Below, in pieces: positions 19,672-61,993 of a stretch of DNA of 64,000 bases. The stretch's first letter is position 1. Each line of letters opens with the position of its first letter. The notes under the pieces were generated by a model. It worked only from the letters and a program-made list of their open reading frames with translations. It was not told where the DNA came from and did no database searches. The position numbers were made by a program, and so were the translations under genes. Source of the stretch: Escherichia phage vB_EcoM_ULIM9. Location: the sequence record OQ850288. The stretch is one strand, 5' to 3'.

Positions 19672-19712
19672 AAAAAAGGCTCCCGTAAAAAGGAGCCTTA
19701 AACTTTATTTTT
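19672..19712. terminator. bidirectional intrinsic terminator between convergent genes
   Basis: Hairpin GGCTCC-cgtaaaaa-GGAGCC flanked by A-run upstream and T-run downstream; lies between thyA (+) and the minus-strand gene ending at 19705. Confidence 0.6.
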
Positions 19713-20076
19713 CAGTATTCTTTGTGTTCTTTTCAGTAATAGCTTGGAGGGCTGATACTGATTGAGCCAGATTGTTCACACTGTCAGAGAATTTATCAAG
19801 AGTTTTGGTAAGTTTTGCGTTTTCACCCTTAACATTCTCTAACTGAACTTTCTGGTTCTCCATCCCTAGCTGAATCAGTCTCATGTCAGACTGTAAATCA
19901 CGAATAGCTGAATAGTTACTTTTGGAATAATTATCTAGCTGCTGTAACTTTGTTGTGACAGACACTTCTTGCTTACCACTTGAAACTTGCATAGTGGTAT
20001 ACATCCCAATAACACTAAAAATACCAACTACAATTGCACCAATATTATTTTTAAAAGCTTCCTCTAGCCACTTCAT
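19705..20076 (-). CDS. membrane-anchored coiled-coil protein (possible i-spanin-like or fiber-assembly protein)
   Basis: 123 aa; one N-terminal transmembrane helix (GAIVVGIFSVIGMYTTM) then heptad-rich domain. Confidence 0.3.
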   Translation of the reverse strand: MKWLEEAFKNNIGAIVVGIFSVIGMYTTMQVSSGKQEVSVTTKLQQLDNYSKSNYSAIRDLQSDMRLIQLGMENQKVQLENVKGENAKLTKTLDKFSDSVNNLAQSVSALQAITEKNTKNTEK

Positions 20077-43394: not shown

Positions 43395-43518
43395 TATGTT
43401 TTCTCCAAATAATTAATATTGTTTCCCCTTAAAAAAGACGGCACAGAGACCGTCAAGGAGAAACCACAATGTACGTCAGAGACATACTGTATAAGTCTTC
43501 CTATAAAGTATAACTCTG

Positions 43519-43605: not shown

Positions 43606-43681
43606 GTAAAATAACTTGGAGAATCCGAAGGGACTCGAACCCTTATAAACCTGTTTTGCAGACAGGCACATAGCCATTTCT
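43606..43681 (-). tRNA. tRNA-Cys (anticodon GCA), CCA encoded
   Basis: Hand fold: acceptor GAATCCG/CGGATTC, anticodon loop CUGCAAA, T-arm with TTCGAGT. Confidence 0.55.
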
Positions 43682-43685
43682 GTCA

Positions 43686-43778
43686 CGGATTCAAATTGGA
43701 GGAAGATACCAGACTTGAACTGGTACACCGATTTCTCAGCTACTGGCAGTTTAGCAAACTGCTCCCTTACCTTTTAGG
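43686..43778 (-). tRNA. tRNA-Ser (anticodon GCU), type II long variable arm
   Basis: 93 nt; acceptor GGAAGAT/ATCTTCC, anticodon stem GCAGT/ACTGC with loop UUGCUAA, long variable arm, T-loop TTCAAGT. Confidence 0.55.
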
Positions 43779-43791
43779 GTTAATCTTCCAT

Positions 43792-44526
43792 TTATTTCTG
43801 TAATGCGCTCTTCATTTCTGGTGTTGCAATAGTGTCAATCACACCAGTTTTACAGGCATCGTCAAACCAGTCTGGTAAGATACCTGCTAAGAACCCATTG
43901 ATATTCGTTTTAAGGTACTCTGCAATAAGGGCAGCTTCTTCTTCAATCATCTGCACAACTTCATCTGCATAAGCTGTAATCTTTGAAATACCTTCATTAA
44001 TCTTACTGACAGCTTGGTTAGCTAAATCAGAAACAGTATCAAGACCCTTATCAATAGCATCTTGTAAGTCACTTAACACACCGTTAACACTGTCTAGTGT
44101 GCTGTTAATCATGTCAATAGCTTGCTGACCATACTCTGTAGCAACACCCATAATACCACTAAATGGTGTACAACCAACTTGTTCTCCTGCTGCACCCATA
44201 ACATTGGAATACCCCTTTGCTACCTGCATACGTGATGAAAACTCATCAATAGACTTTTGACCATAGTCTGTTAGGGTCTTAGTAGTTGCTGTAGTGCTTG
44301 TCAGGCTTGTTGTAAAGCTGTTTAGAAGGACTGTTGTAAGTCCAGCAGCAACAAGCTTCTCCTTCATTGTAGGGTCTGTTACAGAGCTAATAGAGCTTAC
44401 AAGTGATGTAGAGGCAGCTACGGTTCCACCGAGAACTGCTGCACCAGTAATAAGTGGGTTAGAAAACCCTTTACCGGTTTTTAAGAGATTAAAAATCTCC
44501 TTACCTTGTTCTGTCATCTCTTTCAT
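43792..44526 (-). CDS. hypothetical S/T-rich protein embedded in tRNA array
   Basis: ORF track frame 43792-44742 trimmed to Met at 44524-44526 (MKEMTEQ) because the upstream 72 codons run through two tRNA genes. Confidence 0.5.
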   Translation of the reverse strand: MKEMTEQGKEIFNLLKTGKGFSNPLITGAAVLGGTVAASTSLVSSISSVTDPTMKEKLVAAGLTTVLLNSFTTSLTSTTATTKTLTDYGQKSIDEFSSRMQVAKGYSNVMGAAGEQVGCTPFSGIMGVATEYGQQAIDMINSTLDSVNGVLSDLQDAIDKGLDTVSDLANQAVSKINEGISKITAYADEVVQMIEEEAALIAEYLKTNINGFLAGILPDWFDDACKTGVIDTIATPEMKSALQK

Positions 44527-44542
44527 TAAGCACCTTTGAAAT

Positions 44543-44618
44543 TGGTAGTCCAGTGGGATTTGAACCCTCTTCTCATGTTTTTCAGACACGCGCTTTACCA
44601 TATAAGCTACTTGGACTA
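44543..44618 (-). tRNA. tRNA-Phe (anticodon GAA)
   Basis: Anticodon loop CUGAAAA, T-arm GGTTCAAATCC. Confidence 0.5.
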
Positions 44619-44623
44619 TAAAT

Positions 44624-44699
44624 TGGGGTGACCTACGGGATTTGAACCCGTATAGACCATGTTCACAGCATGGGTCATTACCATTTATGATAAGGCCAC
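44624..44699 (-). tRNA. tRNA-His (anticodon GUG)
   Basis: Anticodon stem CCATG/CATGG with loop CUGUGAA; T-arm ACGGG/CCCGT. Confidence 0.55.
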
Positions 44700-44730
44700 A
44701 TTTAAGGACTCTCGTAAGAACCCTTAGAAG

Positions 44731-44806
44731 TGGCAGCGGCATAAGGATTTGAACCTTAATAGGACAGCTTCAGAGACTGCTGCATTGCCAGTTATGCTAT
44801 ACCGCT
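44731..44806 (-). tRNA. tRNA-Gln (anticodon CUG), tentative
   Basis: D-arm GCAT/ATGC, anticodon loop CUCUGAA, T-arm TAAGG/CCTTA. Confidence 0.45.
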
Positions 44807-44811
44807 AAAAT

Positions 44812-44882
44812 TGGTACTCCATATCGGATTCGAACCGATACATAACACAGATTTTAAGTCTGGCCTCTCTGCCAATTGGAGT
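44812..44882 (-). tRNA. tRNA, anticodon read as UAA (Leu-type) but short variable arm; isotype uncertain
   Basis: 71 nt; T-arm ATCGG/CCGAT perfect; anticodon loop CUUAAAA. Confidence 0.4.
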
Positions 44883-44892
44883 AATGGAGCAT

Positions 44893-44968
44893 TGGCGGGG
44901 GATGTTGGAATTGAACCAACTTCTTCGATTTCAAAGACCGAGGTTTTAACCTTGTAAACTAATCCCCT
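44893..44968 (-). tRNA. tRNA-Gln (anticodon UUG), tentative
   Basis: D-stem GTTT/AAAC, anticodon loop CUUUGAA, T-arm GTTGG/CCAAC. Confidence 0.45.
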
Positions 44969-44976
44969 TTAATTCT

Positions 44977-45534
44977 TTACTTTCTCAGTGGATGAATAAA
45001 GAATGCCAACATAACTCTTTCCCTTGAGAATGCTCTTTCTTCTGGGACAACACTTTTTAGTTTCCATCCAATATAAATTCTCCAGTAAAACTGTTTACCA
45101 AAGACTTTAATTGATGGGATAAAAGCGAATAATCCCCAAGCATTACTGTTCCACATTAGGAGATAACCAGTCTGATTATCTTCAGGGTCAGAACTTACGT
45201 TGATATTACCTTTCCACTTAGTAACATCTTTGACATCTCTTCCTAATACATGGTAAGAGAAGTTATAAGCTTTGTTTCTCCAGAGCCATCCGACTCTCTG
45301 CATGTAGACACCAAACTTACCAATCTTTCTAATCTTAGCCCATCTTTTAACGTGACCTTCATCACCATCAATCGGGTTGTCATAGGTTTCCATCCATCTG
45401 AATCCAAAAGGTAGATGTCCTTTCTTCTCACTGTAGAATGGAACTACGAAAGGTGCTAAGATGACTGCTAGGGTTGCTGCAAATGGTTCTAGTAAAGCTA
45501 GGAAAATCCATGAAGCATACTTCAAATATCTCAT
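44977..45534 (-). CDS. membrane protein embedded in tRNA array
   Basis: 185 aa; N-terminal hydrophobic helix (WIFLALLEPFAATLAVILAPFVVPF). Confidence 0.5.
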   Translation of the reverse strand: MRYLKYASWIFLALLEPFAATLAVILAPFVVPFYSEKKGHLPFGFRWMETYDNPIDGDEGHVKRWAKIRKIGKFGVYMQRVGWLWRNKAYNFSYHVLGRDVKDVTKWKGNINVSSDPEDNQTGYLLMWNSNAWGLFAFIPSIKVFGKQFYWRIYIGWKLKSVVPEERAFSRERVMLAFFIHPLRK

Positions 45535-45553
45535 CTAAATAGCCTCTTAAAAT

Positions 45554-45631
45554 TGGTGTTCCAAGACGGATTCGAACCGTCACTAATACAAGGTTTGAGC
45601 TTGCATCCTCTGCCAATTGGGATACTGGAAC
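45554..45631 (-). tRNA. tRNA, anticodon read as CAA; isotype uncertain
   Basis: T-arm GACGG/CCGTC; anticodon stem GCAAG/CTTGT with loop CUCAAAC. Confidence 0.4.
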
Positions 45632-45632
45632 A

Positions 45633-45707
45633 TGGTACTCACTAAAGGACTTGAGCCTTTTTCTTCATCTTGTAAGGGTGATGTTTTACCATATAAACTA
45701 AGCGAGT
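45633..45707 (-). tRNA. tRNA-Val (anticodon UAC), tentative
   Basis: D-stem GTTT/AAAC, anticodon loop CUUACAA, T-stem AAAGG/CCTTT. Confidence 0.45.
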
Positions 45708-45802
45708 GTGAAAGAGGTCTGAAGTTGTGCCGCTAACTCAACTCCGTGGAATTTGTTACGGTCTTCAGTTGACACCAGCGGTCTTTCACTTGACCTCTGA
45801 AT

Positions 45803-45879
45803 TGGTGCTGCTCACAGGACTCGAACCTGCATTTCCATCCTTACAAGGGATGTGTAATAGCCAATTATACGAAAGCAGC
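45803..45879 (-). tRNA. tRNA-Thr (anticodon UGU)
   Basis: Anticodon stem CATCC/GGATG perfect, loop CUUGUAA; T-loop TTCGAGT. Confidence 0.55.
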
Positions 45880-45885
45880 TTTATT

Positions 45886-55713: not shown

Positions 55714-55928
55714 AAAAGTTAACTACAGTTGAAGACTACTATAAACTGTCCCTGTTAGAACAGTATCGCAGGAGCCAGAATATCAGAAAATGCTATGGTA
55801 AACACGCTGAAGGTGACTTTTACCGTTGCTACGATGCAGATTTAAAAGGTGTAACACCTAGAGGGAAAGTACTGCAAAGACTTGTTGACCTTGAGTGGGA
55901 CAAACGATTGAGAGGGGTTGGGAAATGA
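55710..55928 (+). CDS. hypothetical protein (72 aa)
   Basis: ORF track. Confidence 0.4.
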   Translation: MKKLTTVEDYYKLSLLEQYRRSQNIRKCYGKHAEGDFYRCYDADLKGVTPRGKVLQRLVDLEWDKRLRGVGK

Positions 55929-56368
55929 TTTACGAAGAAAGATACAAGATAGATTTTCAGGATACTCGCCATCATACTTCTTTAAGAGTGACCAAACCAA
56001 ATGGAGAGACTGGTATCATAGCACATTTTGGTGGTGATTATTGGTACGGTACAGGATGCTTTGAAGGTTACACTCAAGAATACTTGAAAGCTTTTTACAG
56101 AGACTTTGCAAACGACTACAACAGGGTTGTTGATGAAAAGAACAAGTGTATTAAGCATGAACACCATGCCAGAGGCTGCCTAAGTATTGTTATGGTACTT
56201 GCGTTCTTCTTAGCAATGTTACTGGCAGTATCAGCAATTAGCTGCATAGCTCAAGATTTGACAATTACACAGATTACTGCAAAGCTACATGATATCTGGT
56301 ACTTGTATGCTGTCCCTTTAGCTGGTATCATCATCTCACTAATTAGGTTCAGAGTTCATAAGAAATGA
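55895..56368 (+). CDS. membrane protein with two C-terminal transmembrane helices
   Basis: 157 aa; LSIVMVLAFFLAMLLAVSAISCIA and YLYAVPLAGIIISLI hydrophobic segments. Confidence 0.45.
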   Translation: MGQTIERGWEMIYEERYKIDFQDTRHHTSLRVTKPNGETGIIAHFGGDYWYGTGCFEGYTQEYLKAFYRDFANDYNRVVDEKNKCIKHEHHARGCLSIVMVLAFFLAMLLAVSAISCIAQDLTITQITAKLHDIWYLYAVPLAGIIISLIRFRVHKK

Positions 56369-61259: not shown

Positions 61260-61601
61260 TTAACTGATGAATATTTTTTCAGGTTTTACATAGCTGATAC
61301 GTTGGTTTTTTAGCAGGTCATCCCAGATTAACGCGGCGATATGGGCATAACCGGATTCACGTAAAAGCTTCATTGTTTTACTTCTCGTTTCAAAACGGCT
61401 TGCGTAGTACTCACTATTTAAAACCGTTTTATTCCCTTCATTATCTACATGGATAATCTGCATCACTTGAAAGGGGCTTGTGTCCTCGCCTTTGTTCCAC
61501 TGTTCAAAGTATTTTAGGCACTGCATAGGTGACATCTTATCACTTACTTGAGTTGACCAAGATGCGCCAGCTTTATCGGTAATTACGGTTACATAAGCCA
61601 T
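61260..61601 (-). CDS. hypothetical protein (113 aa)
   Basis: ORF track; preceded by type A cassette. Confidence 0.5.
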   Translation of the reverse strand: MAYVTVITDKAGASWSTQVSDKMSPMQCLKYFEQWNKGEDTSPFQVMQIIHVDNEGNKTVLNSEYYASRFETRSKTMKLLRESGYAHIAALIWDDLLKNQRISYVKPEKIFIS

Positions 61602-61610
61602 TTTTTGAAT

Positions 61611-61680
61611 CTCCTAGTTTAAGGATTGTACTTAGTGGGGAAGGTCATTCCCTCCCCGTTGATTGACAATTTACAGACTT
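61611..61680 (-). repeat. type A upstream cassette, copy 4
   Basis: Near-identical to copy 2 over hairpin and 3' flank. Confidence 0.65.
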
Positions 61681-61693
61681 TTATCAGGCTTGT

Positions 61694-61927
61694 CTAGTCT
61701 TTTTCAATGATAATTTCATATTGACCGTCAACACTGTCGAAATAGATTCCGTCGTCATCTTCTGTCTTAAAGTAACATTGTATATCATCACTGGCGGGAT
61801 AGTCTTGCCTTGCTATCTGGCAAACTTGAATAGCATTTTCTTTACTTCCTGTAAACTCTTCAAGCCCTTTAAAGTCACATGAATGGCCATTACAAATTGA
61901 GAGGATGAGATAAACGGTTGTAAGCAT
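61694..61927 (-). CDS. small Cys-containing protein with hydrophobic N-terminus (77 aa)
   Basis: MLTTVYLILSICNGHSC resembles a signal/lipoprotein-like leader. Confidence 0.4.
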   Translation of the reverse strand: MLTTVYLILSICNGHSCDFKGLEEFTGSKENAIQVCQIARQDYPASDDIQCYFKTEDDDGIYFDSVDGQYEIIIEKD

Positions 61928-61993
61928 GATTTAAGCCCTCTAAAAGCCCCTACAAGGGGCTGATTAGTGTTTATAAGGTGATTGCATAGGTTT

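Follow-up and report, generated by a model that had tools for sequence, protein, structure and literature searches.

In the 64,000-nucleotide stretch of DNA from Escherichia phage vB_EcoM_ULIM9 that was analysed here (sequence record OQ850288; hereafter the window), a gene nested in a tRNA array encodes a 185-residue protein of the DUF7338 family, and we judge with moderate confidence that this protein is a late-acting, holin-type lysis protein of class-III topology, unrelated to the T holin of phage T4. In the mechanism that we propose, a protein with a cytoplasmic tail of about 8 residues, a transmembrane (TM) helix at residues 9-33 and a basic periplasmic domain of about 150 residues would build up in the inner membrane and permeabilise it at a set time, whereby the soluble lysozyme encoded at 52588-53052 would gain access to the cell wall. 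The lysis genes of this phage are scattered. The gene is as follows.

44977..45534, minus strand: DUF7338 / PHROG 2143 gene, 185 residues, ATG start (open reading frame (ORF) list, Pfam, PHROG, tblastn and the ratio of nonsynonymous to synonymous substitution rates, dN/dS)

The strongest single result for a role in lysis comes from Aeromonas phage Aeh1, whose whole 233-kb genome we fetched and searched. Aeh1 has a single DUF7338 gene, Aeh1p338 (E 1.4e-33), which lies far from the Aeh1 tRNA cluster and between the last long-tail-fibre gene and the convergent asiA, the position at which T4 carries t (gene order 38-t). After a gap of 2 nt Aeh1p338 is followed by the e lysozyme gene and then by Aeh1p340, which encodes a protein with a TM helix and a coiled coil. 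No T homolog was found in Aeh1, where phmmer with T4 T gave a best E of 1.3 and a hidden Markov model of the T family (five members: T4, IME13, POP12, Chazly21 and T5) did no better than E 0.069, with a stray fragment; the T4 T sequence used as query agrees at 100% in tblastn with the holin annotated in T4. The Aeh1 record, in which genes bear T4 names throughout, has no annotated t or rI. At this locus Aeh1, a T4-like phage from which T has been lost, has its genes in a holin-endolysin arrangement.

T4 T (gene t; Pfam Phage_holin_T) is a class-III holin that also occurs in T5-like phages. Like T, the DUF7338 protein has one TM helix near its N terminus, a predicted N-in/C-out orientation with an extracytoplasmic domain of about 150 residues, and good conservation within its own family; it also shares with T the t position beside a lysozyme gene in Aeh1 and, in some relatives, a T4-type late promoter. 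Unlike T, whose N-terminal tail is about 34 residues long, DUF7338 has a tail of about 8. Homology to T4 T was considered and is ruled out by Pfam, blastp, hmmsearch and hhalign. Specifically, neither blastp nor hmmsearch matched DUF7338 to T4 T, hhalign of the five-member T-family alignment against the DUF7338 alignment returned a probability of 0.3%, and the DUF7338 protein does not show the fold of the T periplasmic domain. To our knowledge the class-III topology has so far been known only from T4 and T5 gpT, and if our reading is true a sizeable, structurally new family would be added to this topology type.

The surroundings of DUF7338 genes in other, unrelated phages also point to lysis, and in several temperate-like ones the gene is found within or next to an endolysin/spanin cassette. 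We fetched diverse DUF7338 loci (L numbers), searching with subfamily alignments. Among 34 of these, tail fibre and tail-fibre assembly are the PHROG families met most often in the three genes upstream, and endolysins, Rz-like spanins and HNH endonucleases in the three downstream. With seed-based labelling, a lysis gene lies within 4 genes at 16 of 51 diverse loci, and tail-fibre genes lie just upstream at at least 11 of the 51. Linkage to an endolysin or spanin gene, which is absent in the window, is present in Aeh1 and in the first five of these arrangements:

L061/L062: DUF7338, SAR lysozyme (a membrane-tethered signal-anchor-release endolysin), Rz-like gene
L065: tail-fibre assembly, DUF7338, 89-residue TM protein, SAR lysozyme
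L069-L074: 104-residue TM protein, 109-residue protein with 2 TM segments, DUF7338, amidase endolysin, with overlapping stops and starts
L203: tail fibre, assembly, DUF7338, 96-residue TM protein, GH108 endolysin, 72-residue protein, 75-residue protein with 2 TM segments, Rz
L006 (prophage): tail-fibre assembly, DUF7338, two small ORFs, endolysin, Rz
L084-L090: DUF7338 convergent with a holin-like/lysozyme cassette

Small neighbours that combine a TM helix with a coiled coil recur in these cassettes (Aeh1p340 and the 89-, 96- and 104-residue proteins of L065, L203 and L069). A homologous partner protein shared across the cassettes was rejected, as these small proteins are only weakly alike, at the level of the coiled coil.

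Signals ahead of the gene in T4-like phages bear on when it may be expressed. Most T4-like genera (L035-L054) have a conserved intrinsic-terminator hairpin about 40-130 nt upstream of the DUF7338 start. Past this hairpin, 34 nt before the ATG, four distinct T4-like loci carry a perfect T4 late-promoter box, TATAAATA, seen in one clade, and three further T4-like loci carry CATAAATA in its place. At the Slopekvirus loci the hairpin is followed directly by a ribosome-binding site, with no recognisable promoter. These signals fit late expression of DUF7338 in the T4-like clades that have the box; in the window phage, late timing is what our proposal would require.

The gene in the window is real and under strong purifying selection. 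Pfam DUF7338 matches residues 1-184 of its product at E 1e-61 (208 bits against a cut-off of 27) and is the sole Pfam match at E<=1, while PHROG 2143 matches at E 1.2e-80; neither label assigns the family a function. These matches, together with homologs in 565 phage records found by tblastn and a median dN/dS of 0.06 (221 pairs from 22 Felixounavirus copies), show that 44977-45534 is not a chance ORF. Hitch-hiking junk carried on homing endonucleases is likewise ruled out by the dN/dS value, and a recent foreign origin by the GC content of the gene, 0.38 against 0.39 for the window. A profile search of 1.84 billion representative proteins returned 890 clusters at E<=0.001, and most of the 150 best matches listed are proteins of about 160-210 residues matched over most of their length. 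The window protein is a typical member of this catalogued family, with no difference from it. All of the family motifs (LP, T-x-DN...GD, W-L-x-RN and GWK) are present, fellow members of DUF7338 / PHROG 2143 include Felix O1 ORF48, Mushroom gp87, Miro gp275 and Aeh1p338, and the window copy is 96-99% identical to those in hundreds of Felixounavirus records.

An earlier note made from the letters of the window had described a 185-residue gene with an N-terminal hydrophobic helix between same-strand tRNA genes, and the ORF list, ARAGORN, Rfam and hydropathy all agree with this description. The profile searches that it suggested led to the Pfam and PHROG families above and to no relative of solved structure. 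The parts of the protein that carry the topology and the conservation are these:

45436..45510, minus strand: codons of the N-terminal TM helix, residues 9-33, including E16 and P28 (hydropathy, AlphaFold2, charges, conservation)
45355..45414, minus strand: membrane-proximal motif L41-P42...W47..T50-x-D52-N53...G57-D58, invariant or nearly so in 29 sequences and 171 members
45274..45288, minus strand: motif W83-L-W-R86-N87, with W83, R86 and N87 in 99% of members
45061..45069, minus strand: motif G156-W157-K158 at the end of a beta strand (alignments and model)

As expected of a holin, the product is a small protein with at least one TM helix, seen both by hydropathy and in the model. Hydropathy gives a single strong hydrophobic segment at residues 9-33 with a mean Kyte-Doolittle value of 2.1, in which P28 is conserved in 89% of family members. 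An AlphaFold2 monomer model based on an alignment of 29 sequences is confident (predicted local distance difference test score 93, predicted template modelling score 0.83) and consists of a helix at residues 2-33, short helices at residues 43-96 and a five-stranded antiparallel sheet at residues 106-184. No solved fold resembling the model was matched, and a PDB sequence search with the protein gave no match. Positions that are close to invariant in 171 members are P28, L41-P42, W47, T50, D52, N53, G57, D58, W83, R86, N87, G109, G123 and G156-W157-K158, and the conserved polar and aromatic cluster starts about 8 residues past the membrane helix. The window protein has an isoelectric point (pI) of 9.9 and an aromatic content of 19%, and across the family the soluble domain is likewise basic (median pI 9.4). 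The N-terminal tail, with a family median of 7 residues, carries a net positive charge and is hardly ever acidic, while past the helix the flank is close to neutral; by the positive-inside rule these flank charges favour an N-in/C-out orientation. We infer that the window protein is a type-II (N-in, C-out) inner-membrane protein whose basic alpha/beta domain of about 150 residues would be periplasmic, and the formation of a membrane hole would be a further step from this predicted topology.

The array around the gene comprises 21 tRNAs at 43617-48295, on the same strand as the DUF7338 gene (ARAGORN and Rfam). The features that bear on its transcription are:

45554-45631, minus strand: tRNA-Leu(caa), directly upstream of the DUF7338 gene (ARAGORN and Rfam)
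45535..45553, minus strand: 19-nt spacer from the tRNA-Leu 3' CCA to the DUF7338 ATG (direct sequence reading)
45548-45543, minus strand: Shine-Dalgarno sequence AAGAGG, 8 nt ahead of the DUF7338 ATG
44893-44968, minus strand: tRNA-Gln(ttg), 8 nt past the DUF7338 stop codon (ARAGORN and Rfam)
47079..47107, minus strand: sigma-70-like match TTGACA-17-TATAGT (11/12), the best upstream on this strand by consensus match only
43437..43487, minus strand: two terminator-like hairpins, 3' of the last tRNA, tRNA-Cys (pattern scan only)

The gene is thus flanked by spacers of 19 nt on its 5' side and 8 nt on its 3' side, which leave no room for a promoter or a terminator, and a pattern scan of the 19-nt spacer found no promoter-like site. 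The DUF7338 gene is therefore probably co-transcribed with the tRNAs, its mRNA being freed from the precursor transcript by tRNA processing. The site at 47107-47079 is a candidate start of this co-transcript, in a tRNA region where the count of sigma-70-like sites is not above shuffled expectation, and the hairpins at 43437..43487 are a candidate end of the transcription unit. If processing occurs as supposed, the gene would be a small, clean example of an mRNA carved from a tRNA precursor. We think it improbable that DUF7338 is the founder of a large holin-type family of about 890 clusters (50% identity), with a fold lacking any solved relative, that can stand in for T in T4-like phages and whose lysis output, through release of its mRNA by RNase P/E, is coupled to transcription of the tRNA operon.

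Genomes that are 96-98% identical to the window around the gene belong to Felixounavirus, for example Escherichia phages REP8-12 and humlepung and Salmonella phage GEC_vB_B1, and the window is assigned to this genus of Felix O1-like phages. Among the 565 records with DUF7338 homologs, 214 are at at least 90% identity (Felixounavirus) and about 300 are at 55-62%; the latter are Straboviridae that include Slopekvirus, Gaprivervirus, the group around phage PG7, and large phages of Citrobacter, Cronobacter and Enterobacter. Aeh1, jumbo phages and Pseudomonas phage M5.1 are among the tail of records at about 30-35% identity. Within the genus the gene is essentially universal, as shown by 205 records with a large terminase subunit (TerL) at least 99% identical to that of the window against 207 with a DUF7338 copy at at least 95%. 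It is not universal in the subfamily Ounavirinae. The complete genome of Pectobacterium phage Arno162, whose TerL is 72% identical to the window's, keeps the endolysin (44%), DUF7217 (40%) and ORF41 and has no DUF7338 in any frame with filters off (best E 3.5); the other ORFs of its tRNA array resemble HNH endonucleases (H-N-H-type motifs). The presence and absence of the gene across related phages, which the earlier note had proposed to examine, is then near-universal in the genus, missing in Arno162 and patchy in Straboviridae.

Straboviridae copies are 58-62% identical to that of the window at the amino-acid level, and a search with the window TerL at E<=1e-50 found no T4-type phage among the 45 records listed. 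This identity is far above the sharing of structural genes between the two groups, which indicates that the DUF7338 gene was exchanged horizontally between Straboviridae and Felixounavirus lineages. A same-strand tRNA lies 12-1100 nt upstream of the gene in Felixounavirus, two Ounavirinae-like contigs, nearly all Straboviridae loci and three relatives at 34% identity, as called by ARAGORN; on the 35-60-kb contigs of the relatives at 28-36% identity that we fetched, ARAGORN found no tRNA near the gene. The flanking tRNAs vary: the gene stands between Leu and Gln in the window and between Asp and Ser in L033, and in L047 it has Phe upstream. Outside the ORF, DNA similarity to the Straboviridae loci amounts to isolated tRNA-length matches, and a few such matches are seen as well in L033 and L034, which are closer, Ounavirinae-like contigs. 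Co-transfer of the gene with specific tRNAs was rejected as unsupported, since the isoacceptors differ by lineage and DNA similarity stops at the ORF flanks. Pseudomonas phage M5.1 (Otagovirus; TerL 40% identical) has a full-length homolog of 185 residues (E 1e-27) that starts 18 nt past a tRNA-Gln within a 19-tRNA array upstream of TerL. The same nested architecture in this phage argues that nesting predates the split of the lineages, and on this comparison the nesting of the gene in a tRNA array is ancient and not a recent pickup.

These results divide the interpretation given in the earlier note. Its suggestion of accessory cargo holds insofar as the gene is not universal in the subfamily and has moved between families, and fails insofar as it is essentially universal in the genus and under purifying selection. 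Acquisition together with the tRNAs does not agree with flanking tRNAs that differ by lineage, DNA similarity that ends at the ORF and the old nesting seen in M5.1. An exclusion or host-interaction role gained nothing from PADLOC or NCBIfam, where the DUF7338 protein has no defence or exclusion match at E<=0.01, and the genomic context elsewhere points to lysis. Universally conserved homologs with a structural role, which would have spoken against cargo, were not what we found.

Two database entries in the survey stand apart from their stated hosts. GU169904.1 ('Staphylococcus phage SA1') carries at 61381-61935 a DUF7338 copy that is 96.8% identical, and it probably contains Felix O1-like sequence foreign to a Staphylococcus phage. 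L005 (NZ_JBHSCL010000010.1, a 178,077-bp sequence in a 'Flagellimonas marina' assembly) carries a Slopekvirus-like DUF7338 at 58% identity with a tRNA upstream, and is probably a contaminating enterobacterial phage genome.

The name holin has been attached to members of this family before. Annotators at the Center for Phage Technology called a class-III holin for a gene of phage Mushroom (PMC4392139), and in our gene map the 'holin' label of the Mushroom record falls on exactly this DUF7338 gene. The label is repeated for Moogle and in later papers; the Felix O1 equivalent of the window gene, ORF48, is labelled 'Phage conserved protein', and some GenBank records of the gene have 'holin' or, on topology alone, 'class-III holin'. 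In the papers examined the label goes back to topology or was copied from earlier annotation, and none of them bases it on an experiment. Holin and lysin genes were not found as a cassette in the Felix O1 genome paper, whose holin candidates were other small membrane proteins (PMC3185647). Our search of the literature found neither a mention of DUF7338 nor a Felixounavirus transcriptome. We regard the gene as an ordinary, already catalogued one that is a probable lysis protein, and the present contribution as making a testable hypothesis of a copied annotation and documenting that a protein gene has long been lodged, and conserved, within tRNA operons of phages. Wide use is made of Felix O1-like phages in Salmonella and E. 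coli typing, biocontrol and therapy, and we know of no experimental identification of their holin. If DUF7338 is that holin, it would offer a handle on lysis timing for the engineering of these phages; if it is only an accessory, it is an ordinary conserved hypothetical gene.

Several observations weigh against a holin function. In the window itself the DUF7338 gene is distant from both the endolysin gene and the spanin-like gene at 19705-20076 (minus strand), which encodes a 123-residue protein with a TM helix and a coiled coil, named 'i-spanin' in related genomes. This protein shows weak reciprocal similarity to Aeh1p340 (L214 43394-43699; E ~5e-5 in a tiny database). In favour of the holin reading, homology and T-family profile searches found no T homolog in the window, and none of the 10 membrane or lysis-region proteins scanned is a PHROG-annotated holin. 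An alternative holin candidate is the 157-residue protein at 55895-56368 (plus strand; phrog_4343), which has two C-terminal TM segments and lies 2.8 kb downstream of the endolysin gene on the same strand; no homolog of it was found in Arno162. The absence of DUF7338 from Arno162, which keeps its endolysin, counts against the holin reading. In a Slopekvirus (PP582754.1) DUF7338 coexists with an annotated T holin, and small holin-like proteins with 2 TM segments stand beside it in L203 (75 residues) and L084-L090. A second DUF7338 subfamily, from gut phages, shows the same mix of neighbours, three of which match the holin family phrog_2073. Enrichment of lysis genes near DUF7338 is only about twofold at loci that are not all independent, and tail-fibre neighbours are about as frequent. 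The near-invariant T50, D52, R86, N87 and K158 look more suited to a ligand-binding or catalytic site than to a simple hole-former, co-transcription with tRNAs could mean early expression, and we found no experiment on any DUF7338 family member in the literature.

The small holin-like proteins beside DUF7338 raise the prospect that it is an accessory protein and not the hole-former. Such an accessory, whether it acts as antiholin, as partner of a holin or in regulating the release of endolysin, would use its periplasmic domain to bind a holin, the endolysin or a membrane-proximal envelope ligand and so tune the timing of lysis, and we consider this unlikely. It would account for the presence of DUF7338 alongside T in a Slopekvirus, for the multi-TM holin-like proteins or PHROG holins in the same cassettes, for the invariant polar cluster just past the membrane helix and for the recurrent TM-helix/coiled-coil neighbour. 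Known holin partners and antiholins (T4 RI, P1 LydB and the PBSX XhlA type) are likewise membrane-anchored and found in cassettes with a separate holin-like protein. DUF7338 is homologous to none of these and much larger than RI, it resembles neither T4 RI nor any PDB chain, and, unlike for such partners, no separate holin candidate is visible in the Aeh1 or L061/L062 cassettes. An antiholin is usually either made from the holin gene itself by alternative translation or dedicated to a single family of holins, while the DUF7338 family occurs with very different cassettes.

An envelope-directed accessory factor, roughly what the earlier note had in mind and in our view distinctly unlikely, would block superinfection or change a lipid-linked precursor, lipopolysaccharide or peptidoglycan in the manner of Cor, Llp or Sp, and would be carried in plastic tRNA regions. 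Tail-fibre and assembly genes, often with 4-nt overlaps, are the commonest upstream neighbours of DUF7338, and in BUCT660 the gene directly precedes the tail-spike gene. Patchy occurrence in Ounavirinae and Straboviridae with exchange between families, the conservation of Arg, Lys, Asp, Asn and aromatic residues close to the surface of the membrane, and the basic periplasmic domain (median pI 9.4) are also in keeping with such a factor. T5 Llp, T1/phi80 Cor and T4 Sp and Imm are similarly small, envelope-targeted, often located after tail-fibre genes and patchy; each of them is either a lipoprotein or very small, and is specific to a receptor or an enzyme. DUF7338, unlike these, lacks a lipobox, is strongly conserved across unrelated phages and has a late-promoter signal in T4-like relatives, which is unexpected for early-acting exclusion proteins. 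Felixounavirus and Straboviridae phages are expected to use different receptors, and 58-62% identity between them argues against receptor masking. The position of DUF7338 inside holin-endolysin cassettes and at the t locus of the T-less Aeh1 favours lysis, and PADLOC and NCBIfam were, as above, empty. A membrane-tethered basic domain that acts on tRNAs or translation would fit the basic soluble domain and the same-strand tRNA nesting or adjacency in Felixounavirus, Ounavirinae-like contigs, Otagovirus M5.1 and many Straboviridae. This we think very unlikely, as most distant relatives have no tRNA nearby, the Aeh1 copy is far from the tRNA cluster, the soluble domain is predicted to be periplasmic and it has no likeness to any RNA-binding fold. 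On balance we continue to prefer a holin-type lysis protein.

Elsewhere in the array, a tRNA-like element at 47136-47198 (minus strand) scores 32.9 bits in Rfam (gathering score 29) and is not called by ARAGORN. A gap of about 1 kb without tRNAs lies at 46553-47628, between tRNA-Asp and tRNA-Ser(tga), where relatives have tRNA-Ile, Lys and Met genes (GEC_vB_B1 and Mushroom) or HNH endonuclease genes (Felix O1); it looks like decay or deletion within the array. Directly upstream of the array, at 48462-49877 (minus strand), lies the gene for a 471-residue protein, equivalent to Felix O1 ORF42, which matches PHROG 850 'RNA-binding protein' and Pfam DUF2828 and DUF7788 and is named a von Willebrand factor A (vWFA) protein in some records. 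In Aeh1, Aeh1p164 is an 'RNA-binding protein' by annotation and lies >5 kb from the main tRNA cluster. Near the Ro-like ORF and in the array, Rfam found tRNAs only and no Y RNA or other structured RNA.

The earlier note had also pointed to a second protein gene in the array, and this gene is real.

43792-44526, minus strand: DUF7217 / PHROG 2114 gene, 244 residues, pI 4.4, 25.6 kDa; Felix O1 ORF49

It matches Pfam DUF7217 at E 4.6e-87 and sits between tRNA-Ser(gct) and tRNA-Phe. Its mechanical ORF runs to 44742 and overlaps three tRNAs, and relatives annotate the 735-nt version. A PDB sequence search with the protein gave no match. In Arno162, a distant member of Ounavirinae, the gene occupies the same place ahead of TerL, at the 40% identity given above. 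The Felix O1 paper assigns 'gp49' to a 51-kDa virion band, about twice the 25.6 kDa predicted for ORF49; a stable dimer, anomalous migration or a slip in numbering might explain the difference.

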